Below, piece after piece: positions 4,698 through 29,504 of a stretch of 64,000 nt of DNA. Made by a program: the position numbers and the translations under genes. The first letter of the stretch is position 1. The number at the start of each line of letters is the position of its first letter. Origin of the DNA: Mobula hypostoma (taxonomy: Eukaryota); NCBI RefSeq assembly GCF_963921235.1, contig NC_086097.1:74216001-74280000 (forward strand), given 5' to 3'. The notes beneath the pieces were generated by a model. The model had not been told where the DNA came from. It did not search any database and saw only the letters and a list, made by a program, of their open reading frames with translations.

Positions 4698-5983
4698 AAG
4701 CATGGTGAATTTCTATCACCACTTCACTCTGCAGGCTGCTTTCCCTGTATAATGAGCTTAAAGGAAATACCCATAATTAAGTGCTTGAGTGGTTGGCGGA
4801 CATGACCAGACATTTGATGATGCCAGTAGAGCTCTTTTAATATGACCCTGCTGGTGCACCCACTCGCATAGATAGCCTCTCGCATCTGTGCCGGAAGGGC
4901 TCACTGCAACTGATTGCACTAAAGTTTGTTTGGCATGGTCTCAAAAAGGACATGTGTGATTGGACTGCAGCTTGTGTGGAGTGCCAAGGGGCAAAAATTA
5001 ATCATCACGTTCAGACGTCATCGGCACCTTTTGAGGTCCCTAACCGACAGTATGACCATGTCAATCTGGACCTTGTTGGTCTTCTTTCCACCTTCACATA
5101 CCTTCTTACCATGGTGGACCATACCACCATGTGGTCAGAGGTCGTCCCTCTAGCATTGACAATGGCCACAGATGTGGCTCAGGCATTCATTAGAACCTGG
5201 GTTGCTCGGTTTTGCACCCCATCTGATATGTCCTTTGACCGCGGTTCCCAGCTCCTCTTAGACTTCTGGGCTGTGATGGCCCAGAACCTCGGCATTAGGT
5301 TACAACACACCACGGCATATCACCTGCAGTCCAATGGTCTATGCAAGTGGTTTCACCACTCCTTAAAGGCTGCTCTGAGAGTTTCCCTGATGGACAAGTG
5401 TTGGCATGATTGTCTCCCGTGGGTCCTGCTAGGGTGCAGAATTGCTCCAAAAAAGGACCTGCAGTCACCTATGGCAGAGATGGTATACAGGCAGCCATGA
5501 CGAGTGCCAAGTGATTTCATTCCTGACGCTGCAACTGCCTGGCTGACTTCTCAACAGCATTCCAATCTCCTCAGTAAATTCAATTCCTTTTTACCTATTC
5601 CCTCTTCCCAACATGGCATTCAGCACTCTTGGGTTCCTGTTGACCGAAATCCTGCCTCATTTGTTTTCATCCACCATGATGCATACCAACCTCACCGTAG
5701 GCCAGTTCCGCGTATTGGAAGGGAGAGAAAGGACTTTTGTCATAGATAAAAGGAGTAAACTTGAACATATTCCAGTAGATCACCTTAAGCCGGCCCACCA
5801 AGACTTGGAGTATTCTGCTGCCATGCCCCTAGTGTCACAACATGATAAAGTGCATGTCAACGCTCCTCCAGTCCAGCCTGCTGTTCCTCCACCCATGGAA
5901 TGCTGGACCTGAGCCGGGCAGCTTGTCCAAGCTCCAGACAGGCTCACAATGCCAGTTTTAGTGAATTCTGGGGTGTAGGGTAA
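4698..5983 (+). mobile_element. Gypsy/Ty3 LTR retrotransposon remnant (RT-thumb fragment and integrase)
   Basis: ORF 4952..5500: CVECQ, HVNLDLVG, MSFDRGSQ, TTAYHLQSNGLCKWFH. C-terminal IPVDHLKPAH. G-rich PPT-like tract at ~5970-5980. Confidence 0.85.
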
Positions 5984-14329: not shown

Positions 14330-15082
14330 GTAGAGCTGATTGTGGACTTCAAAGAGGGGAGGACAAGTGAACACGAACCAGTCCTCATAAGGGTATCAGA
14401 AGTGGAGAGAGTGAGCAAATTCAAGTTCCTGGGTGCTAAGATCTCTGAGGATCTAACCTGGTCCCAACATATTGATGCAGCTACAAAGAAAGCAAGACAG
14501 CGGTTATATTTCATTAAAAGCTTGAAGACATTTGTTTTGTCACTAAAACTCTTGAAAATTTCTGCAAGTGTACTGTGGAGAGCATTCTTACAGGCTGCAT
14601 CACTGTCTGGAACGGTGATGGGGGGAAGGGGGGAGCTACTGCACAGGATTGACAGAAGCTACAGAAAGTTGTAAAATTAGTCAGCTCCATCTTGGGTACT
14701 AGCCTCCGTAGTATCCAAGACATCTTCAGGGTGTGCTGCCTCAGAAAGGCAGCATCCATTGTTAAGGACCCCCATCACCCAGGATATCCCTGTTCACGTT
14801 GTTACCATCAGGAATGAGGTACCAAAGCCTGAAGGTCACACTCAGTGATTCAGGAACAGTTTCTTCTCCTCTGCCATCTGATTCCCAGTTGGGCATTGAA
14901 TCCATGAACACTACCTCAGTTTCTTTTATTATTTCTGTTTTTGCACTATTTTCAATTTAACTATTATATATATATTAACTTACATATTTTATATATTATC
15001 ATATTATATATTATTGTACTGTTGCCATTAAGTTAACAAATTTCATGACATATGCCGGTGATATTAAACCTGATTCTGATTC
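14330..15082 (+). mobile_element. Rex1/Babar LINE 3' fragment
   Basis: ORF 14342..14674 (VERVSKFKFLG..ISEDLTW..KKARQRLYF). Ends GATATTAAACCTGATTCTGATTCT. Confidence 0.9.
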
Positions 15083-15454
15083 TTTCTGGAAGCTTCTTTG
15101 GTATCGCATTATTTGAATAGGGGTCTACCTGGGCAATGGCAGTTATATTGGGGAAAGTTAAGTAGGGAAAGGGAAAGAAACATACGATAAACTATAAAAA
15201 AATAGCACAATGGAGACAGTAAAAAGTCTAAAGAGTAAATTTCTTCATTAACCGAATGAGTAAAAAACAGCATAAAAAGTGTAATTGAATTGGTGCAGTG
15301 TATGAAACTTTGAAACTAAGTGCAGCAATATGAGAAACTGCAGCAGGGGTGACAAGTAGGCAGTCCTGCCAGTGACACTTCTTGGAAAACAGCCCTATGT
15401 TGAACAGCCCTCCGAGACAACGCCACCATCTGAACTCCAAGGAATATAACATCT

Positions 15455-18070
15455 AAGGAGAAGAATGTTGAATCCATCTGAGCAGAGATTAGGAATAGTA
15501 AAGGGGGAAAGAAATCACTGGTGGGAGTTGTCAATAGGCCACCGAGTAATAATGTTATAGTGATACATGCAACAAACCAAGAAATATCTGAGGCGTGTAA
15601 GAATGGAGCAGCAGTTATCGTGGCGGACTTTAACTTGCACATAGATTGGTGAATCAAATTGGTTGAGGCAGTCTAGAGGAGGACTTTGCAGAATGCATAC
15701 ATGATAGCTTTCTTGAACAGCATGTTACTGAACCTACAAGGGAACGTGCTATCTTGGATCAGGTCCTGTGTAATGAGACAGGTAAAATGAGCAATTTTGT
15801 AGTTAGGGATTCTCTTGGAAAGAGTGATCACAGTGTGATTGAGTTTCTCATACAAATGGAACGTGCAATAAAACCAGTGTATTATGCCTAAACCAGGGAG
15901 ACTACAATGGGTTGAGGGAGGAGTTGGATAGGGTAGAATAGGAATGCAGGCTATATGGTGGGACCATTGAGGAACAGTGGAAGACTTTCAAAGATATTTT
16001 TCACGGTGCTCAACAAAAGTACATTCTAGTTAAAAGAGAGGACAGTAAGGATGGAGAGAGCCAGCCTTGGATAACTAAGGAAATAAAAGAAGGCATCAAA
16101 CTAAATGCTTATGCTTACAAAGTTGCCAAGAGTAGTGGGAAATTGGAAGATTTGGAAAACTTTAAAAAGTATCAAAGAACCACAAAGTGATCAATAAAGA
16201 AGATAGATTATGAAAATAAACTAGCACAAAATGTAAAAACGGATAATAAATGTTTTTATAATTATAAAAAATGGAAAGGGGTGTCTAAAGTGAACATATG
16301 TTCCTTGGAGGACAAGAAGGGGGAATTGATATTGGGTAGTGAGGAAATGGCCGAGGCTTTGAATGACTATTTTGTATCAGTCTTCATGGTGGAGGACACG
16401 TCTAACTTGCCAAAGATAGATGGTCTGGATGCGATGGGAGGTGAGGACCTTGATACAAAAGCTAGCACTAAAGAGTTAGTGCTGAGCAAAGTTGTGGGCC
16501 TAAAGACAGATAAGTCCCCGGTCCAGATGGATGCATCCCAGGGTACTGAAAAAAATGGCAGAGGTTATAGTAGAGGCTCTGGTGATAATTTATCAAAATT
16601 TTCGGGACTCTAGGCAGGTCCCAGCAGATTGGAAGCAGGTAAATGTCACACCACTGTTCAAAAAAGGATGTAGGCAAAAGGCTGGTAACTATAGGCCTGT
16701 TAGTTTAACATCTGTGGTTGGGAAAATGCTTGAGGCTTTCACTAAAGAGGTGTCTGCAAAGAATTCGATCCATCAGGCAGATGCAGCATGGATCCAGCAA
16801 AAGCAGGTCCTGTTGACAAACTTAATGAAGTTCTTTGAGGATATAATGAGCGCCGTGGATAGAGGGGAACAAATAGATGTTATTTACTTGGATTTCCAGA
16901 AGGCATTCGATGAGGTGCCACTTAAAAGACTTATCCATAAGATAAGGATGCAAGGAGTTGGGGGTGATGTATTTGCATGGATAGAGCATTGGTTAACCAA
17001 TAGAAAGCAGAGAGTTGGGATGCATGAAGTTTCTCTGGTTGGCAATCAGTGGTGAGCGGTATGCCACAGGGGTCGGTGCTGGGCCCGCAACTGTTCACGA
17101 TATACACTAATGATCTGGAAGAGGGGATCAGGTACAGTGTATCTAAGTTTGCTAATGACACTAAATTGAGTGGAAAAACAAATTGTGCAGAAGATAAGGA
17201 GAGTCGGCAGATAAAGATAGGATAAGTGAGTGAGCAAGGGTTTGGCAGACGGAGTACAATGTTGGTAAATGCAAGGTCATCCACTTTGGAAGAGAAAATG
17301 GAAGATCAGATAATAATTTAAATGGTAAAAGATTGCAGCATGCTGCTGTGTAGAAGGACTTGAGAGTGCTTGTGCATGAATCGCAAAAGGTTGGGTTGCA
17401 GGTGCAGCAGGCTATCAAGAAGGCAAATGGAATGTTGGCCTTCATTGCTAAAGGGTTGAATTTAAGATCAGGCAGGTTATGCTGCAACTGTATAGGGTAA
17501 TGGTGAGGCTGCATCTGGAGTACTGCATGCAGTTCTAGTCTCCTTACTTGAGGAGGGATATACTGGCTTTGGAGGCAGTGCAGAGGAAATTCACCGGGTT
17601 GATTCCGGAGATGAGGGGGTTAGACTATGAGGAGAGATTGAGTTGCCTGGGACTGTACTCGCTGGAATTCAGAAGAATGAGAGGAGACCTTATAGAAATA
17701 TAAAATTATGAAAGGGATAGATAAGTTAGAGGCAGGGAAGTTGTTTCCATTGGTAGGTGAGACTAGAACTAAGGGTCTTAGCCTCAAGATTCAGGGGGGT
17801 AAATTTAGGACGGAGGAACTGCTTTTCCCAACGACTGGTGAGTCTGTGGAATTCTCTGCCCAATGAAGCAGTGGAGGCTACCTCAGTAAATATATTTAAG
17901 ACAAGTTTGGATAGATTTTGCATAGTAGGGGAATTAAGGGTTATGGGGAGTATGCAGGTAGGTGGAGATTAGTCCATGGTCAGATCAGCCATGAACTTAT
18001 TGAATGGTGGAGCAGGTTCGGCGGGCCAAATGGCCTACTCCTGCTCCTACTTCTGATGTTCTTATGTTGT
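15455..18070 (+). mobile_element. CR1 LINE ORF2 (partial APE endonuclease and RT) with 3' UTR
   Basis: APE motif VADFNL, ORF 16531..17055 (GNYRPVSLTSVVGK, YLDFQKAFD), PQGSVLGP. TTCTTATGTT tail. Confidence 0.92.
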
Positions 18071-18074
18071 TATG

Positions 18075-19236
18075 AATTACAGGCTAGACATGATACAGAG
18101 TCTACAATGGCCTCCAGCAACTCAAACAAGGATGACAGTAATGAAACAATAGGATTGGCAGCTATCTCACTGATTGCTCCAATTAAGACCAAGAGAGTCA
18201 AGACACATATGGCTGGAGATGGAACCTATAAAAGGAGACAGATAGTTTACCATCAACCACCTGAAACAGAAAAGATTGATAAGTGGTCCAAGGACGTTCC
18301 ACCTCCTCAAAAAGTACAAACGTTTGTAAGTTTAACGATCTGGCTGAGCTTCAACATATTAAGAACATATACAAACTGCACCCATATGATGGCATCCAAA
18401 TTTTGGCTACTGTGTTGTCTTCTCTGCAAACTTGGTAGTTGAGTAATAGAGTTCATAGTAGCATAGGAGATGATAAGCAAAATATACAAGATGGTTGGAA
18501 TGCTATTAAGAGATGGTTGGAAGGACAGGCCCTAATGCAGACTGATTGGAGGAACTTGGTTGACTGCAAGCAAGAGATTTCTGAGGATGTTTCAGAATAT
18601 GAGGAACACTACAGGGTAGCATGGTTAAGTTATTCAGGAGTTCTGCACGTAAATGAAGATGACATAGAGGATTCTGCATATGATTGCTTGAAGTCAACTT
18701 TTAAGGTTATCCTGAAACCAGATGCCACCAAAATGATGAAGATGACAACCTGAACTGGAGTGAAGTAGCTGTTTCATATAGTGAGCTAGTGTGGGTCACC
18801 AAACAAGCGGAACAAGATATCGAAATCTGTATGAGATCATTACAGGTGGGTCAGTTGCCTGTTGATCAGCTGCCACAAACCATTGGTCAACAAGTATTGC
18901 TCGCTAGTCAACAGCCACATCTACTGCAGATGAGTCAACAGCAAATATCTATTAACAAACAGAGGAAGTTGGACTAGAATTCACTGCATGTATTATAGCT
19001 ATCTCAGTCTGAGTCAAACATCTGAGGCCAATCCCTCAAAGCACAGTGTCACTTCTGTGGTAAAAAAGGACATAGGGCTAAAAATTATTGGCAAAAGAAA
19101 CAAGGTGGACTACAGAAACAAGCTGCCAAGAAATTTGAATCCCCTGCCTCACAAAAGTCAGAAGATTCTAATTTGATGACATGATTTCAACAAACAATGG
19201 TGGATGTATGTATTGTCACAGTAAAAAAAAACGTGA
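18075..19236 (+). pseudogene. gag: Endogenous retrovirus gag remnant (capsid C-terminal region and zinc knuckle)
   Basis: TDWRNLVDCKQEISEDVSEYEEHYRVAWLSYSG resembles the retroviral MHR region. CHFCGKKGHRAKNY at ~19047-19090 is a degenerate CCHC knuckle. Confidence 0.7.
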
Positions 19237-22200
19237 CTAGGGTCTTCATTGCAGCCCTTGCTTGCCTTGACAGAGCAAAAACTGGACAGCTTCTATGTTA
19301 ACTTATTGATTGGAAATTAATGTGCGCAGGAGCTGAGCTACACATATAACATAATCTATTGGCCAACGGTGCAAAATGTCATTGACTGATATACATAAAT
19401 GTGCATATGTTGCAGGAGAATTATACTAATTAAAAGCAAACCATTCCAGGTAAGTACAACTTGGTCATCACCCATAAGAAATGCAATACTGGGTAGAAGA
19501 GGTCTTGCAACCTCATCTTGGAATGGGTGGCTTCTTAACTGGAGGGTAAAGTCATTTGCAATCTCATAAAATTAGCCAAATCTGAATTAACTATTCATCC
19601 CATATGGTCGAAAGTAAAAACAACTGGGGCCTACTGAAAATGGATCCTGTTAAGTTTACCGTTAAGGTGCCACCATCTACTAAGTAGTATCTTCTGAGCA
19701 GAAGATCTATGGAAGGTATTTTACCTATTTATTAAGCAGCTGGAGGAGCAAAGAATTCTTGTTAAAACTCGCTGCATGTCTAGCCTGGTTTGTTAAGAAA
19801 GCGAATGGTACCTGGAGACTGACAGTGAATTACTGAGTTGCTAATCAAAGTACTGTGTTGGCAAGCTAACCCCTCTAATGACAGATCCATCAACGATTTC
19901 CAAAGCCTTGAAGCCATCACACAAGTGGTTTATAGTTATTGATTTGGCCAATGGATTCTAGTCTGTACCACTGGCGCCTGAATGTCAATTACGGTTGGCT
20001 TTCACAGTTGATGGTCAACAATACCAGTGGACAAGGCCACCACAAGGGCTTCAGAACAGTTCCACTGTCTATCACATGACTTTGAGACAACATCTGGGGG
20101 ACTTACAGGAATTAATTTGACTATTATACCCAGAAATGACTGGTGTTACTGAATCGTTGTAGGAGGCTTAGCACAACGCTTTACACTTCCAGTGATCCAT
20201 GTTTACTTCTTGTCGCTGTCTGCAAGGTGTTTGTACATTCTTCCTGTGACTGCATGGGTTTCCTCCAGGTGCTTTGGTTTCCTCCCACAGTCCAAAGATG
20301 TACTGGTTGGAAGGTTAATTGGGAATTGTGAATTGTAAATTGTCCAGTGAACAGGCTAGGATTAAATTGGAGCATTGATGGGCAGTGTAGCTCGAAGGGC
20401 CAAACGGGCCTATTCTGTGCTGTATCCAGTTTCCTTCCACAGTCCAAAGATGTACCGGGTTAATCAGGCATTGTGAATTGTCCTGTGAACAGGCTATGAT
20501 TAAATTGGGGGATTGCTGGGCAGTGTGGCTCGAAGGGCAGAAGGGCCTGTTCCATACTGTAACTCAATAAATAAATAAAATATTAGTACTATGTGGATGA
20601 TGTCCTGATTGTATTCAAAGCTGCAGACCAGCATGAACATGATGTGCTTTGTTTGCTCAATTATTTATTCTCCAAGGGTGACAAGGAAAATATAGACAAG
20701 GCATAATTGCAACAAGAAGAATTAATTTACTTGGACAGACCCAAGGTAAGAGTGAAATCACTGAGGATCGTGCAAAGGCCATTAAGTTTGCAAAGCCTGC
20801 TACATCAGTTCAGTCAACTCCGATCATTTCTGATTTTTATGTGATTACAACAAAGCCTGGGTTGATTCATATGCTGAAATTGTACAACCACTCAACAAAT
20901 CTGCTGAAGTGCTCAGACGATCCTGTGATTCTTAATGAAGAGCAACTGAAAATGTTGCAAATATTAAAGGTGACATTGTGTACTGCACTCACATTAGGAA
21001 TCCCTGATACAGGTAAACCATTTACCCTGTATGTCAACAAGAAACATGGCTACATGATAGTAGTCTTAACTCAAGAACATGGAAACCAATGGAGCCTTAT
21101 TGGTTATTGCTCTGCCAAATTGGATAATGTTGCTTTTGGATGGGGTTTGTGTTTACAGGCATCCAGGCAACCTAGCTGACAGTCATGATGGTTTCTAGCA
21201 TCATTTTTGATCAAGTTTTAAATGTTCCATGACCATACTCAGTACACACTTTACTGACTATGAATAGGGCCTATCGAGTTACATTTGCTCAGAGGTCTAA
21301 GTGGCACCTAATAATCTTTTAACAAGCAAGTTCAGTGAATCCAGCTATACTGTTACCATCAGACATGGAAGACTGCAATGACCATGACTCTGCAAGAATA
21401 ATAACATGTCATGAAGATGCATATTTTTTCTAAAAATGCCTCTGTTGAACACAGATCTGTACACTGATGGTTCCTCAACAACTGAGGGTGGAATTCAAAT
21501 GACTGGATGAGCTGTTGTTTCTGAAAGTGAAGTACTGGCATCAGGCACTTCTGTGCATCAGGTAAAACTAAAAGCTCTGATTGAAGCCTAGAAGTTGGTA
21601 GAATGAAGATCTGCTAATATCTGTACTGATTCTTGATAAGCTTTAGAGTTGTTCATGCCTTTGGAAACTTATGGAGACAAAGGGAATTTCTTATGGCTGT
21701 AGGAGCCCCTATCAAGAATGGCCAACTAGTACAAGAGCTCATGAATGTCATACAACTTCCGTCAGAAGTGACTGTATTAAAATGTAAAATCCATTCCAAA
21801 TTGGCTGCAATGGAAGCTGTGGAAATGCATTCATGGATGAAGTTGCAAAAAGGGAAGCACAGGAAGAGGTAAAAGGAATAAAAGAAGCAAAACAAAGTCA
21901 AAGAATTAAAGGAAGTACCAAGAACATCTGCCATGAACTTGCCAACTGAAAGTAAGGAAACAAGGTTGGACTCTGTCACAGATGGATGTACTAGATGGTT
22001 GAGAGAATCAACCCCAGTGCTCTAACCAGGAAAAGTGGTTCTGGATTGAGGATAGAAGGTTAGACAGTGAGGGAGGATGGCGATATAGTACTCACCATAT
22101 ACTAGTAGCTTCAATTACATTGTGTCCTTATCCGGCACAGCAGATACTGTATACTCCACTGCACACATTGGAGTGGAAAAGATGATCAACAGATTCTCCC

Positions 22201-23120
22201 AATCATGGTGGAATCCACGGTTCAGGGCACAAGCTTGACAAACATTTGAAAGATGTATGACATACCTTAAGACAAATCCTGAAGCACTGGAAAACCTACC
22301 ACACTTAAATGCTCCTGACCCACCTGGTCCATTTTTACTCTTAGAAGTGGAAGACATTACTTCATCAAAGTGTCAAGAATACTCAGTCATACTAGTAATA
22401 ATAAGTTTTTAAGGTGGGTGAAACCTATTTCAACAAGGAAAGCCACTGCCATGCACACAGAAAAACTCTGATCAAGGACTATATTCTTACACAGGGATTG
22501 TCATGTCACATTGACTCTGAACAGGGAACAAGGAACACATTTCACTGTGAGTGTCTGTCAGGAATTATGTCGACTGAAAAACATTGTATGGTTTTTCATT
22601 GTCCACATCGTGTAGAATCATCAAGACAAGTCAAACAGATGAATGGAATCATCAAAGAATGACTGACTTAAGTATCTTGAGGAAGGTGCACCATAGCCTA
22701 TGCCTCTACCTATGGTCTCATGTAGCATCAGAACAACCTCAAACATGAAAACTAAATTAGGTCCATTCGAGATGGTAACAGGGCATCCTATGTCATTGCC
22801 GGGAACTCTTGATCTCAGAGAGGCTAATATGCATCTTATGGCAGACAGTTTAGTTTACTATTGTGAGAAATTAACCCAAGCTGTACAGTCTGCTTCTCAA
22901 CAAGCTTCTGCCATTTGGAGTGATCCAACAGAGGGAGGACACACCCAAATTCCTTGAGTGGGTCCTATCTAAGAAATTGCATAAGGAACCATTAGGAACT
23001 CAATGAGAAGGTCCTTATCAAGTGCTGTTAACCACTAACTCAGTGGTGAAGGTAGAAGGCAAAAGTAAGTGGATACATGCTAGCCACTGCAAGCAAGCTA
23101 ATGTGGTACACATTAAGGAG
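19237..23120 (+). pseudogene. pol: Endogenous retrovirus pro-pol remnant (RT, tether, RNase H, integrase) with many stops and frameshifts
   Basis: RT: VKKANGTWRLTVNY, WFIVIDLANGF*SVPL..AFTVDGQQYQWTRPPQG, YVDD at 20590-20601. Tether: ORF 20841..21179. RNase H: LYTDGS, ICTDS, FGNLWRQREFL. Integrase: H-rich N-terminus, [36 protein letters not shown]. Confidence 0.9.
20130..20580 (+). mobile_element. V-SINE (HE1-like) with internal tandem duplication, inserted in the ERV RT
   Basis: V-domain-like GGGTTTCCTCCAGGTGCTTTGGTTTCCTCCCACAGTCCAAAGA. The ~150-bp 3' part occurs twice. (AATA)n tail. It splits RT between the PQG and YVDD motifs. Confidence 0.8.
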
Positions 23121-23546
23121 AACAAGTGCTGTGGTTTATGTGCTAGTAACCTCTGACTCAGCGCCTTCATGCTGGCCTACAATGAGCTAATCCCCAGCCA
23201 GAAGACATCGACAACTACTGGACACTATGAAGTTTATTCTAAAATTCGTTGTTGTTGTTACATTTTTCCTACTTTTTCCCTAATTACAAAATGAGTGATA
23301 ATATTTGTCCTGATATGCTACATCATAATTTATATCTTTTTAATTTGTATAAGGATAATCATTAATAGAGTGGTTCAAACTCACGTAAGTGTGCCTACTA
23401 ATCTAACTAACAGTGACACAATCCTACAAATACTCTTAGATATTGCCATAAATTGAGTAGATCATTTTATACTTAATGTAGATACCACAAATTCTTCTGC
23501 CTCTCAATTTTCAGATGTTATCATTCTAAATGTGTGATTTAGAATC

Positions 23547-23610
23547 AGAGGGGAATGATGGATTAGACGATAGAATTGTTATTTCGATACAGTTTATCTG
23601 TTCTTATGCT
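23547..23610 (+). repeat. ERV polypurine tract and start of 3' LTR, truncated by the Gypsy insertion
   Basis: AGAGGGGAA (23547-23555) is immediately followed by TG. Confidence 0.5.
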
Positions 23611-26600
23611 TGTGATGAGAGTCCTTGACGAGGATGGTTTGGACCCAAATGCTGGGGTATCTGAAGCAAGGTTCGAGACATAGTATCAAACTGGATCTGA
23701 ACACAAAGCAAATGCTAGACAATATCACTAGTAGTCTTACAATTGAGCCTGAACTGCAGTTCAGATGCTCCTTAAATACTTGATTCTCAGTGCCCATAAC
23801 ATGCTTACCAATTAGCGGGATCTTCCTGAACCCTTAAAGTGGCCACGTCAGCTATCCATACTCCGGGGTGTTAGAGTGTCTAAATCCTGGAAGCTGGCAT
23901 GGTTGTGAGCAGCTGGTAACAGGATCCCCTCGCCTATGCTAACTCCTGGCGGCCTTGGTTGCTCGGAGAGGCGGTGATAGTAATCGTGGATGAGAGCCCG
24001 ATCCAAGATGTCCCTTTCAAGCACCCAGCACTTCTCCTCGAGTCCGAATCCTTCCCAGTCCATGAGGTATTGCTGAGCACCTTGAATAGTGTGTGAGTCC
24101 AAAAGTCTTCTCATTGTGAAGGCCTATTCCCTCAGGGCTAAGGGCTGATACAGACAGCTTTTAGCTTAGAGATGTGGAAGGTGGATTTGATCTTTAGGGT
24201 CTTGGGCACGCAAGATGTAAGCCACTGGATTTACTTCCCTCATGAACTTAGGCACCAAGTTTCTAGATTCCACTCAGAGAGGTAAGTCATGAGTGGACAG
24301 CCAGGCCTGTTGACCTGTCTTCCCTTTGGGTCCACCTTGGTCTCCACTTTCATGCTAGAGGCCAGCAAAGTCTGTCTTGCCCTAATCCATTTTTGCTTGC
24401 AGTATTGGATGAGATCTTCAGCGGCAGGGACCCCAACTCTGTCCTCTTGTTACGGAAAGAGGTGGAGGATAACTAAAGTGGTGAATTTTAACATACCGTG
24501 TGCTGAATGCTGTAAGGTGTTGTGGGTGACCTCTGACTACATCAAATGTTCACACCATACATAAGGTCTTTCCAAGGCCAGGCATCTTAGGTTACATTCT
24601 AAATCTTGGTTGGTCTGCTCTGTCTGGCCATTGGACTGTGGGTGAAACCCAGAGGAAAGGCTTGCTGTTGCCCCTATCAGTTTATGGAATGTCCTCCAGA
24701 AATGTGATGTAAATTGTAGACAACAATCTGAGCAATGTCCGCCAAGAACCCATGGATCCTGAAGACCTGGTGCAATTCTGGCTGCCTCCACTGCAGATGG
24801 TGGCTTCTCCAAGGCAATGAACTTGCAGGCTTTGGAAACCTGCTCAACAATTGCCATGATGACTGACCTCCCCTTGGATGGCGGGAGAGCTGTGAAAAAG
24901 GCCATGGCGAGGTGTGTCCAAGCTCTTTTTGGAACAGGTAGGGGGTGGAGGAGCCCTTGCGGTCAGGTATGGTGCTCCTTGTTCTGAACGCACATGTCGC
25001 ATGATGTCCTGATGTCATAGCTCCTCTCTGCCAGTGATAGCCACCTGGAGAAGAATGCACACGGGTGCATTTTACTGTCCAAAGGTAGTCATTGAGACTA
25101 CCAATGTCTGTGGGGTCCACTTCCACACTGAAGGGAAGGTCCAGGTTAGGAGAAACCAAGATGGGAACTGTTGTGATCTGCTGTTAAAGCTTTGCAAGAG
25201 CAGCCTCCACTTCAGTTGACCAGACAAAAGGGTCTGTGGATTTCTTAGTTAGCACCATCAACAGAGCTATCGCCAAGCTAGGGTTCCTGATCAACTTCCA
25301 GTCGAAGTTAGCAAATCCCAGGAATCACTGGACTTGTTTGATACTGGATGGTCTCTGACTGCCTGGGTCTTGATAGGGTCCATCTTGAGTTTGCCATTGG
25401 AGATGATGAAACCCAAAGATGAAATAGTCGTCCCGTGAAACTTGGACTTCTCCGACTTGACATAAAGAAGCCTCTTTAAACCGTCCCTGACATGAATGCC
25501 CTCCTCCATGGACTTTGAGAAGATTAGGCTGTCATCGAGGTAGATGGTCATGCTTATGGAGAATATCCCGGTGCACATCATTTATGAAGGCCTGGAAAAT
25601 GGCTGGAGCATTTGCAAGGCCAAAGGGCATAACCAGGTACTCACAGTGCCCTATTGGTGTATTGAATGCACTCTTCTACACATCACCTTCTCTAATACAG
25701 ACCAGATTGTATACACTCCAGAGGTCTAGTTTTGTGAATACGCTCACCTCTTGGACCATCTTGAAGGCTGTATTCATGAGTGGAAGGAGTAACAATTCTT
25801 GACCATTATGCAGTTTTTATCCCCTATAATCAATACACAGCCATAGACTCCTATCATTTTTTGTACAAAGAAGAGGCCTGCACTGGAGGGCAGGATGAAG
25901 CCCATGGCAAGAGCCTCCATTATATACTCCTCCATTGCGCTTCTCTCTCGGCCTGAGAGCGCATACAATTGACCCCGCAAAGGACAAGTACCAGGCAGTA
26001 GGTCTATAGCACAGTCGTAGGGTCAGTGCAGTGGAAGAGTCGAGGCTTTTCCCTTGCTGAAGACCTCCTCCAGATCCTTGTAGATGGGAAGGTTTTGATC
26101 AATCTGGGTGTTGCTATCTCCTCTGGACCTTCATTTGAGGAGAACTCCTGAGGCTTCTTAGATGGCAGGGGTGATCCAACAGACCCGTGAGTCCTCTCTC
26201 TAGGCTCACAGAGTTCATTTGTAGAAACAGCGGCCAAATCAGAGTCTAAATCCCCATTTGTACCCTCAGGTAACAGCAGCGAGGCGTTACAGAGGGATCT
26301 TGCCCCCTGGGAATAGGCTTCAAGGATTAATGTAAAGGAGTCTTTCTCTTCCTTGAGACCAGGTGGCTGAATTCCTTAAGCTTAGCAGCAAATTTCCCAG
26401 ACTGCTTGGGCATCTCCTTCGGGCTCTCCTGAACTAGAGATTTCCCCTCTCTAGTTCCTGCAGGATCCTGACTAGACAGTGTCAGGACTTGCACAGTCCA
26501 GTTGGCTGGAACCAGTCTTTCCGCTGTTGAGAGCAGGACAAGGTCTCCAGACAGTTTCAAATTCCCTCGCACTGAAGGCTGCCCCCTTACTGATCATTGG

Positions 26601-27395
26601 TCACGGGACACTCTGGGTGATGGAACACCATGCCGCAAACAAACCCTTTTACAATGACTGGGCCAAGCAATAATTCTCCCCTCCTCCCCAGTCCATGAAT
26701 GGGTTATGCTGGAACAGACAAGTGTACCCGAGGATCAGGAGTATGAGTGGAGAGTCAATAATGTAGTAACTAATATCTTCCACATGATCCCCCATCCTCA
26801 TCTGCAAAACCACAGTCAGCACAGTCCCGCTAAGGAGTCTTGGCCTGAAATGTCGACTGTACTCTTTTCCATAGATGCTGCCTGACCTGCTGAGTTCCTC
26901 CAGCATTTCATGTGTGTTGCTTGGATTTTCAACATCTGCAGATTTTCTCCTGTCTGTTGCTGGATCCACCCAGAATCTAGCGGGCGGCCATTCAATTCAG
27001 TTGCTGGCATGGACTGGCTTAACTCTCACAGTGATATGTCAAATCGATGGGCGGATCTTAAATCCAGAAAACCACCCGCTGCCCCAGAGTCCACAAAAGC
27101 CTTCAATTGCCTCAAGTTCTTACCCCCGGTGAGTTCTGCCTCAGCATGAAACCAGAATCCATGAGATTGGGTGTAGTGGCTGTTACTGTCCTGACACTGG
27201 ACAGACTCCCGGTGGCTGCAACTTCAGATATTCGGCCCGCAGGCGACCTGCTTTCCTGTAGTAAAAGCAGCAACCTTGACTTCAACGCTGGGACCTCTTA
27301 TCGGTGGAGAGTCTAGTACTGCTGACCTGCATGGGTTTGATTGGATCTTGAGCACTTTAAACCTCGACCTTCCAGTTCTGGATTCACTTCAAAAT
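23611..27395 (-). mobile_element. Chromovirus-type (Sushi-like) Gypsy LTR retrotransposon, degraded; 3' LTR ~23611-23921
   Basis: Degenerate zinc knuckle at ~27230-27280, protease [25 protein letters not shown], integrase SSGFHPQSNGQTEQTNQ, chromodomain (ORF 23848..24114: YLMDWEGFGLEEKCWV). On the minus strand a PPT precedes a TGTTA...TCACA LTR. Confidence 0.92.
26821..26953 (+). mobile_element. Penelope-like terminal repeat with degenerate hammerhead, inserted in the chromovirus
   Basis: CAGTC..GAAATGTCGACTG followed by the family tail ATAGATGCTGCCTGACCTGCTGAGTTCCTCCAGCATT. Confidence 0.8.
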
Positions 27396-27396
27396 G

Positions 27397-27855
27397 CTAT
27401 ACCTTTCTATAAGAACACCCCCTGTCTGCTGTGCTATGCTCCTGTGAAATAAGAGCCAACCCACTCAACCTCTCCTCATAACTCAGTGCCTCAATCCTGG
27501 CAGCATCCCTGTAACTCTCCTCAGCACTCTTCTCACTTAATGGCATCTTTCCTACATATGGGGGCCAAAACAGAATACGATATTCCAAAACACATGCTGG
27601 AAATCCAGAGTAAGTCTCAGTCCGAAACATCAACTGTTTATTCATTTCCATAGAGGTTGCCTGACCTGCTGAGTTCCTCCAGCATTTTGTGGGTATTGTT
27701 CAGGATTTCCAGCATCTGCAGAATCTCACAATATTTCAAATGTAGCCTCCCCACTGTCTTGTACAACTGCAACATATCATCCCAACCTGTCATCTCAGTG
27801 CTCTAACTTATGAATGCCAATGTGCCGAGTGCCTTCTTCACCACCCTTTCTACCA
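27397..27855 (-). mobile_element. CR1 fragment containing a Penelope terminal-repeat insertion (27590-27727)
   Basis: CR1 motifs LEY..FWPPY and LSYEERL. Insert flanked by an imperfect 13-bp TSD, ACGATATTCCAAA / ACAATATTTCAAA. Confidence 0.75.
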
Positions 27856-29504
27856 AAAGAAAACCTTGCATTGAATGGCAAGGAAAGTCTGATGATATTT
27901 TATCATAATGGAGCAGAAACTACTCACCTGCCTGCATGTGGAATTTTTTTTTCACTGTCTTAAAACACAAGTAATGTTTAATAATCCTAAATTCTAAAAA
28001 TAAACTTTGAGCAAATCTTTCATTCTGGCACCTTGATGTTACAAAACATCAAAAATGAATATGCTCACACACACAAGGAGCAAAGGACTTCTACGTGTCC
28101 CTGAGCTTAGCCTGGGAGCGGGGCTAGGAGTATTATCACTCATAGTTACAGCTCAAGTGAGAATAGTGGAGTGAATATCAGAAGAAAATAAATAAAAATA
28201 AAATTAATGGCTGAAGACCCACGTTCCGTTTCACAAATAGAGCATTGTCATGGGTTACATGTTGATAACACAGCTTGTTCTATCCTAACCCTAGATTCCG
28301 ACTCTGTACAGAGGGTGGATGATTTTCTTCTAAGATATTCTGGTTTCCACCCAGATTTCAAAGATGAGTGAGTTAGCAGATTAACTGGCCGTTGTAAATT
28401 GCCCCTTGTGTACAGGTGTGTGGTAGAATCTGGTGGGAATTATAGGAATGTGGGGAGAAGGAAATGGGCTGCATGTAGGATTAATTTCAATGGGTGAGGA
28501 TTTAGTTAGGCCTGGGGGTATGTTCCTGTGCTGTGTGACTATGAATATATTTTTTAGTGTTTATTGTTTCCAATATTTATCTGTAGTGAACTTTCTGTAG
28601 CAAGTTCAGTCCTAGAGGAAATACATACCATTCCTGAATGATGACCCACAAAGATCTCATACACCTAAAACCTAAATCGTCATCTGGAAAAGGTTTACTA
28701 GCTATTTAAGAATAAAGTTCAAGGTAGACCAAACAAATGGACAGGTGTTTGCAGAGATGTAAGGTAATGGGCCAGTACAAACAAATTTTGGCTCTTTTCC
28801 TTTGAACAATCTAGGTTGCGGAGGTTCTCGCACAGTGCTGTAGCGAGATCCAGGACTTCATCTGAATGGTGGTGAAGGAACAGTGATATATTTCCAAGTG
28901 GGGATGTCACAGGGCTTGGAAAAGGATACATAGGGGCTACCATCTGTATGCACAAGGGCCTTTGTTTCTCTAGGCACCAGTGGCTGCAGAAGGAAAAGTG
29001 CAAGATGGGGGCTGCAATGAGCAGTGGGGAGAGGGGAGGAACACAAGAAGTAAGTGAAAACATGATTGCTGGCCTGTAAATAAGAAGAGTGTGGGGAAAT
29101 GAGAACACAAAGCTAGATATGAGCTTACCATCACCTTAGCTAATCCAGAGCTCTGAAACAGACTGAGCATTCTGGTCAAGAGCCCTGAAACACACTGAGC
29201 ATTCTCTCCTTCACAAGGATTTAGGGTGATGATGCCACACCTGTTCCTCACTGCCTTGCTGCAAGATCGAGTGACAAAATATTTTTAGATGATGCAATCA
29301 TCATTATAGTAGCGAGCATTGTGTGTAAGTTAAGCAATCCACCTGTGTGTGTGTGCATGTGCATGCATTCCATAGAACTAATGGATGCTGGATCCAAGTC
29401 CTCAGAGCTGATTCAGACTGTCTCCTGGCATACAAGTACAGTGGAGGTGGACGTAGGGGTGGGGGGTAGCTGGGTGATAAAGAATTTGAAAAAGGATTCA
29501 CTGA

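Follow-up and report, generated by a model that had tools for sequence, protein, structure and literature searches.

A decayed env-less provirus in a probable cartilaginous fish, from a lineage that is probably the sister group of gamma- and epsilonretroviruses

The window, meaning the whole 64,000-nt stretch of DNA analysed here, contains on its forward strand, at about 18075–23560, an endogenous retrovirus (ERV), in which remnants of gag, protease, reverse transcriptase (RT), tether, separate RNase H and integrase follow one another in retroviral order (Table 1). This element is an inactive, env-less proviral fossil of a group that is probably the sister of all gamma- and epsilonretroviruses (class I), and not a recombinant. 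The original prediction had reported mixed clade signatures and proposed either a poorly sampled deep-branching lineage or a recombinant; a stem position next to class I would account for mixed-looking motifs without recombination.

Of 22 candidates, two proteins were retrieved with the RT block, at 70% and 68% identity. The protein P0001, which clusters with a common carp protein, aligns with the whole pol of the window, and the region from protease to integrase is collinear with this intact relative in tblastn. A search with P0001 revealed a family of Pols with 51–92% identity over RT and tether in Coilia, Alosa, Astyanax, spotted gar and other assemblies; this carp/gar/pike group of intact ray-finned-fish ERVs is hereafter called lineage X. 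No relatives of P0001 were found in IMG/VR. The cluster of the lineage X Pol P0192 comprises 3,937 member sequences, which suggests a large recent expansion or many assemblies.

For placement, the pol of the window was divided into 10 single-frame pieces that were kept separate (two of RT, three of tether, two of RNase H and three of integrase), leaving out the integrase stretch 22400–22670, which is split into four short frames. All ten had their highest identity in lineage X, one integrase piece being nearly tied (57% versus 56% to a walleye epidermal hyperplasia virus, WEHV). In quick mixture-model trees the pieces of the window fell inside lineage X with support of 98 (RT) and 99 (integrase), and the RNase H pieces in a group supported at 89. 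The capsid-like piece matched the Gag of the lineage member P0217 (E 1e-7), while the other 22 of the 23 Gags compared all had E-values of at least 0.06. Judged by these alignments, this copy is not a chimera, since all tested pol pieces and the Gag capsid piece are closest to one lineage. A short interspersed nuclear element (SINE) does split the RT, and none of the listed Logan contigs spans the whole element; however, pieces on both sides of the SINE match lineage X and are collinear with one intact Pol, so that a fusion of two unrelated proviruses at this locus, or a misassembly at the SINE, was rejected as a negligible possibility. For this copy, the recombinant origin proposed earlier is therefore not supported.

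The reference retrovirus genomes were drawn from IMG/VR by RT patterns; most of their labels are putative and follow motifs, and the label loki-like (lokiretrovirus-like) for lamprey, eel and Zoarces rows was assigned by inference. Walleye dermal sarcoma virus (WDSV), snakehead retrovirus (SnRV) and Moloney murine leukemia virus (MoMLV) were recognised by the lengths or gag-stop contexts given in PMC13517186. Tree support is given as paired values, and the careful trees used LG+G4. Thirteen names were dropped from the first quick-tree sets, class II rows from all later trees, Gypsy and P0078 from the RNase H tree, foamy tethers from the RT+tether tree, and foamy and Gypsy rows from the RNase H+integrase tree.

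In the RT tree (44 rows), lineage X was recovered at 93/96, class I without it at 100/99, and the two together at 95/98. Removal of eight motif columns gave 99/97, 100/99 and 91/98, respectively. The tether alone supported lineage X at 100/98 and its union with class I at 93/95, although the long foamy branches fell wrongly within class I there. In the RT+tether tree, enlarged by ten rows of SnRV-like and loki-like type and by an avian ERV-L-like RT, lineage X (100/99) and class I (100/99) were united at 98/94, the bootstrap being not fully settled, and lineage X lay inside a 98/95 clade that excludes the lamprey, eel and Zoarces rows. In the same tree four elements (P0242, P0156, P0093 and P0277), including one of the horn shark, form a graded series between SnRV-like elements and lineage X plus class I (94/91, 83/92). 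The SnRV-containing clade Huo looks paraphyletic in this sample of sequences.

The downstream domains also join lineage X to class I, as had been proposed for RNase H and integrase: at 97/98 in the RNase H tree, at 96/95 in the combined RNase H+integrase tree, from which group SnRV is excluded, and in 153 of 200 bootstrap trees for integrase alone, where lineage X is whole (100/99). Forcing class I to exclude lineage X, as in the RT tree, lowers the log-likelihood by only 10.1 (RNase H), 0.5 (integrase) and 1.6 units (both combined), and was never rejected by the approximately unbiased (AU) test (p 0.31, 0.49 and 0.44). All domains are therefore compatible with one history, in which lineage X is sister to class I, and recombination is unneeded for the lineage as well.

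The original prediction had likened the RT block to spuma-related or lokiretrovirus-type enzymes. At motif level the foamy resemblance is real, the 77-aa RT piece scoring 44 bits on foamy Pol versus 38.8 on murine leukemia virus (MLV) in a PDB search. This piece shares 72% identity with the fish lineage, compared with 46% for WDSV, 37% for SnRV and 27–33% for foamy viruses, and the intact RT–RNase H of a relative scores 458 bits on XMRV (xenotropic MLV-related virus)/MLV versus 224 on foamy virus. Of the 17 outgroup rows, 12 show the G-[FY]-W motif, SnRV and a Gypsy among them, compared with none of the 20 class I rows and two of seven lineage X rows. Because it is found in these outgroups and in no class I row, it is an ancestral state lost by class I, and was rejected as evidence of foamy kinship; DL.NGFW should not be read as a mark of such kinship elsewhere. 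Within lineage X the motif varies widely (A-Y-W, A-F-H, G-F-F and G-F-W, with P0180, P0178 and P0193 among the members), and such lability makes it a poor clade marker.

Among the other explanations, a divergent but ordinary epsilon-like ERV of clade Mu, drawn outside class I by a few retained residues, is very unlikely. Outside lineage X the top identities in most domains are indeed to WDSV/WEHV and epsilon ERVs, and relatives carry a gamma-type env; however, class I without lineage X still has 100/99 support after removal of the motif columns and in the RT+tether tree, and nesting with WDSV, the subgroup tested, was rejected by the AU test (lineage X with WDSV/WEHV, p 0.003 for RT alone; with WDSV, p 0.001 for RT+tether). 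The idea of a deep-branching lineage is thus supported: its RT stands outside gamma- and epsilonretroviruses, and its domains do not all nest inside a described epsilon-like family. Membership of an ordinary SnRV-related group (clade Huo, class III), whose likeness to class I would result from slow evolution, is very unlikely. SnRV has the NGFWS motif too, grouping with it was not rejected by RT alone (p 0.16) or by the tether alone (p 0.14), and in the tip order of S2 Fig of Xu et al. 2018 (PMC6001957) Cy_ca_ERV4, Le_oc_ERV2 and Es_lu_ERV3 follow snakehead retrovirus and precede the foamy block. On the other side, RT+tether rejects lineage X with SnRV (p 0.006) and with all Huo-like rows (p 0.004, a constraint that also forces those rows together), RNase H+integrase keeps SnRV apart, and in whole-Pol blast P0001 scores 622 on WDSV, 558 on MoMLV and 438 on SnRV. 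A loki-type RT was likewise rejected against the rows taken as loki-like (p 0.0006). For a spuma-related RT, the likeness of the motif stands, the placement in the best trees does not agree, and the AU test gives no formal rejection.

An ancient recombinant origin of the whole lineage, in which a stem virus outside class I supplied RT and tether, and an epsilon-like virus near WDSV supplied RNase H, integrase and env, is unlikely, although an ancient domain swap is possible given the repeated weak pull of lineage X towards WDSV. Replacement of RNase H and integrase is documented in retroviruses (PMC7947760), and RT rejects the grouping with WDSV that RNase H favours. Against such an origin, RT and tether agree on a single position next to class I, and the RT-like arrangement is inexpensive in the other domains, as given above. 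Several observations nevertheless weigh against the placement of lineage X as sister to class I. The RNase H tree puts it beside WDSV, WEHV and P0024 inside class I (90/92), the best integrase and RNase H+integrase trees place it weakly with WDSV (56/58 and 70/85), and the long class I stem of RT has no counterpart in the RNase H and integrase trees. Grouping with foamy viruses was not rejected by RT alone (p 0.21), nor was that with SnRV; with RT+tether the foamy grouping is borderline and unrejected (p 0.051), and it occurs in no best tree. When class II rows were added, lineage X became sister to class I plus class II (96), with class II inside class I; long-branch artefacts are thus present, as class II and the foamy tethers fell inside class I. 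The careful trees were run under LG+G4 only, the groups were partly named after the first tree, ERV-L is represented by one RT row, and the rows include no identified salmon swim bladder sarcoma virus, zebrafish retrovirus ZFERV or fish foamy-like ERV. In addition, the tip order of Xu et al. puts lineage members in the Huo block.

The sister-group placement of lineage X would imply that it split from the class I stem at a time when RNase H and the C-terminal part of the integrase were already class I-like and the RT motif had not yet shifted from G-F-W to A-F-F. Its Pol was likely made by readthrough of the gag TAG, and infection probably carried the group from one fish class to another. The copy in the window would then have lost env and been integrated or amplified in the germ line, followed by loss of the 5' end beside a long interspersed nuclear element (LINE), insertion of the SINE and neutral decay. 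The carp/gar/pike group may well be a distinct genus-level clade, published with SnRV but forming the closest outgroup of gamma- and epsilonretroviruses, with ongoing germ-line invasion in teleosts and a past crossing to elasmobranchs. If so, the locus would provide a calibration at tens of millions of years, and the order of class I traits would be fixed, with RNase H, integrase tail and gamma-type env acquired first and the RT motif later.

The features on which the original prediction relied are present (Table 1), with the reservations that the fourth Cys is missing from the gag knuckle (zf-CCHC E 0.03), that GPY occurs as EGPY, and that the polypurine tract (PPT) has only nine purines. The Pfam search, run on three frames with stops read as X, identified RVT_1, RT_RNaseH_2 and RNase_H, the E-values of which are listed in Table 1, as well as Integrase_H2C2 (E 3e-3) and MLVIN_C (E 7e-8). 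The EGPY motif lies inside the MLVIN_C domain, and the integrase ends with WIHASHCK at about 23070–23095. The tether with a separate RNase H had been taken to separate retroviruses from Gypsy elements; this layout is present and the RT groups with retroviruses, but the layout alone is not exclusive, since plant Tat elements also have a dual RNase H (PMC9040795). A TAG at 19238–19240 (context GAC TAG GGT, 19235–19243) lies between knuckle and protease and is likely a readthrough junction, by analogy with the MoMLV and SnRV junctions, the contexts of which are given in PMC13517186; later frame changes blur the frame. No env homology was found in 23103–23560, either by Pfam in three frames or by comparison with the env of the relative L097. 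No Pfam Gag domain matched in the window, no paired long terminal repeat (LTR) was found there, and Rfam gave no matches in 15000–28000.

Table 1. Features of the provirus and of neighbouring elements, in positions of the window (PBS, primer binding site; MHR, major homology region)
Feature	Position	Strand	Evidence and remarks
gag remnant	18075..19240	+	capsid-like piece 18364-18750 with MHR-like segment; degenerate knuckle from 19047
Protease remnant	19300..19530	+	tblastn with P0001/P0002; active-site motif degenerate
RT, N-terminal part with DLANGF block	19586..20096	+	RVT_1 E 9e-10; 72% identity to P0001 over 19854-20096
SINE inside RT, upstream of YVDD, with internal duplication	20150..20580 (ends approximate)	+	other copies in window; A-rich tail
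RT palm/thumb with YVDD (20590-20601)	20587..20736	+	52-56% identity to lineage members
Tether (degenerate first RNase H / connection)	20739..21415	+	RT_RNaseH_2 (tether-type) E 1e-5; 3/3 pieces best to lineage X
Separate RNase H	21439..21865	+	RNase_H E 5e-3; 58-59% identity to P0001
Integrase: HHCC zinc domain, core, MLV-type C-terminal domain	22140..23102	+	Integrase_H2C2, MLVIN_C; 44-58% identity to P0006 by piece
Stretch between integrase and PPT, ~450 nt	23103..23546	+	short hydrophobic ATG-started stretch at 23228
Probable PPT, 9 purines (23547-23555), then TG	23547..23557	+	resembles PPT-TG junction of L097
Flanking decayed LINE	15000..18073 (start approximate)	+	RVT_1 E 2.6e-8; tail repeated elsewhere in window; very high summed depth
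Decayed chromodomain Gypsy, unrelated neighbour, inverted	23850..26800 (ends approximate)	-	RVT_1 E 4e-9, Chromo E 5e-3

The provirus is dead and cannot now encode a working enzyme: in an alignment with the intact relative, the pol of the window falls into 23 collinear segments free of gaps and shows 15 in-frame stops as well as 20 changes of frame. The 3' tail of the LINE, which we take to be CR1/L2-like, abuts the ERV at 18073, where the 5' LTR, the PBS and the start of gag are missing; the copy is cut short at its other end too. The SINE, presumably V-SINE/HE1-like, has a summed sequencing depth above 10^5 in 4 of 4 runs. The DNA 3' of the PPT is high-copy, with a jump in depth there, and is a candidate LTR only. 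The matching contig of organism D ends at 23552 and continues with 419 other letters, while organism B matches through 23640; in view of this difference, the sequence beyond the PPT may have been inserted later. Unrelated to the ERV are also a Gypsy-type integrase remnant on the forward strand (4841–5737) and the three loci found by a scan for ERV-L-type patterns.

Parts of the ERV stretch occur in 20 of the 24 listed sequencing runs, and no RNA runs containing it are among those listed. Among the contigs listed, the longest show 74 differences in 4,499 letters (1.6%) for organism B, 228 in 3,552 (6.4%) for organism C and 230 in 3,486 (6.6%) for organism D. Contigs of organism B bridge both the LINE junction (18039–18402) and the 3' end (to 23640), and the insertion is therefore likely orthologous there; organisms C and D have a short integrase-to-PPT stretch in common. 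With rates from PMC10699275 and PMC4422223, and assuming a cartilaginous host, the age is roughly 16–36 million years from organism B, and roughly 65–150 million years from organisms C and D if their copies are orthologous. A cartilaginous host is presumed from features of the SINE and the LINE. An insertion shared by related hosts would provide a minimum age and evidence of jumps between fish classes.

The lineage X element L097 contains LTR, PBS, a 427-aa env and a PPT-TG junction like that of the window. Its env carries TLV_coat (E 4e-12) and is most similar to gammaretroviral envs; lineage X thus resembles, from its sequences, the orthoretroviruses, and at least one of its members carries an env of gamma type. 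In L097 (2690–5836) an in-frame internal deletion fused the Gag N-terminus to tether, RNase H and integrase in a 1049-aa open reading frame, with env and LTRs intact and capsid, protease and RT absent. In L098 (539–3112), whose leader resembles that of L097, the RNase H and integrase of the lineage are in frame with a long coiled-coil stretch, which is presumably Bicaudal-D-like and possibly represents a captured host gene or a chimeric contig. The Gag of P0217 has an intact knuckle, of which the window retains a remnant; it shares 19% identity with WDSV Gag (E 5e-7), and its Atlas matches, a mixture of Gag_p30 and Gag_p24 clusters (0.87–0.90), indicate generic retroviral Gag only. These comparisons do not suffice to place Gag in class I, as originally proposed, or in class III. 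A single-sequence fold of the capsid piece (mean predicted local distance difference test score 53) was too poor for a structure search.

Members of lineage X are already contained in two published data sets, so that the description as poorly sampled holds only in part. Compared by eye with Xu et al., the Pol of cy_ca_ERV4 is almost identical to P0217/P0192, the RT block recurs in le_oc_ERV2, and the Gag of es_lu_ERV3 closely resembles the capsid piece of the window. Those tips stand after SnRV in the Huo block, in a figure from which tip order, not branching, was available. The members published by Xu et al. come from ray-finned fish, whereas the copy in the window, in a probable elasmobranch, is env-less and dead, and its lineage groups with class I. 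That run of names includes no shark, skate or chimaera tip, a whale shark tip standing a few lines later; of their shark, skate and chimaera sets, one sequence each was covered. In Wang and Han 2023 (PMC10435555), the RT rows of Mamb.ERVi.1a-c, Oste.ERVi.1a and Eluc.ERVi.2 match by eye the P0192-type or lineage-type RT blocks, P0192 itself resembling Oste.ERVi.1a; that study describes X-like intact, polymorphic, invading ERVs in Megalobrama and pike. According to Bai et al. 2021 (PMC8672886), the class I ERVs of zebrafish mostly seem ancestral to gamma- and epsilonretroviruses, and Naville and Volff 2016 (PMC4977317) mention divergent epsilon-like families. No published name for lineage X, or placement as sister to class I, was found in a search that covered neither subscription journals, Repbase nor bioRxiv supplements, and the available parts of PMC5210030, PMC8922424, PMC12287698 and PMC11089739 contain no name for it. 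What is new may be the member in a probable shark or ray and the placement as class I outgroup, the lineage itself being in published data.

The locus is inert and its value is phylogenetic, as the group is poorly served by the labels class I/II/III and Jin/Mu/Huo; as outgroup of gamma- and epsilonretroviruses it would root class I and show Huo to be a grade. With WDSV and WEHV (clade Mu, class I) lineage X shares tether and RNase H, a class I-type RNase H, the MLVIN_C tail, likely readthrough of the gag stop and fish hosts, while its RT lies outside the class I clade, with G-F-W in place of A-F-F and 44% identity between the RTs of the intact relative and WDSV. SnRV and CmiERV lineage I (Huo) have the NGFWS motif, YVDD, one Gag knuckle and the TAG-G gag junction in common with it; however, SnRV is only 34% (RNase H) and 29% (integrase) identical to the intact relative, compared to 49% and 37% for WDSV, and stands outside lineage X plus class I in the RNase H+integrase and RT+tether trees. 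The foamy viruses and lokiretroviruses share the DL.NGFW motif and the dual RNase H layout. Their RNase H belongs to group I of PMC7947760, whereas that of lineage X joins class I and is 27–32% identical to foamy RNase H where detected. Spumaretrovirinae have a Gag without MHR and zinc knuckle (PMC2717909), and lineage X differs from them in its knuckle-bearing orthoretroviral Gag. Membership of the lokiretroviruses was rejected by the AU test cited above and by the TLV_coat env of L097, which is of gamma type and neither foamy nor paramyxovirus-F-like.

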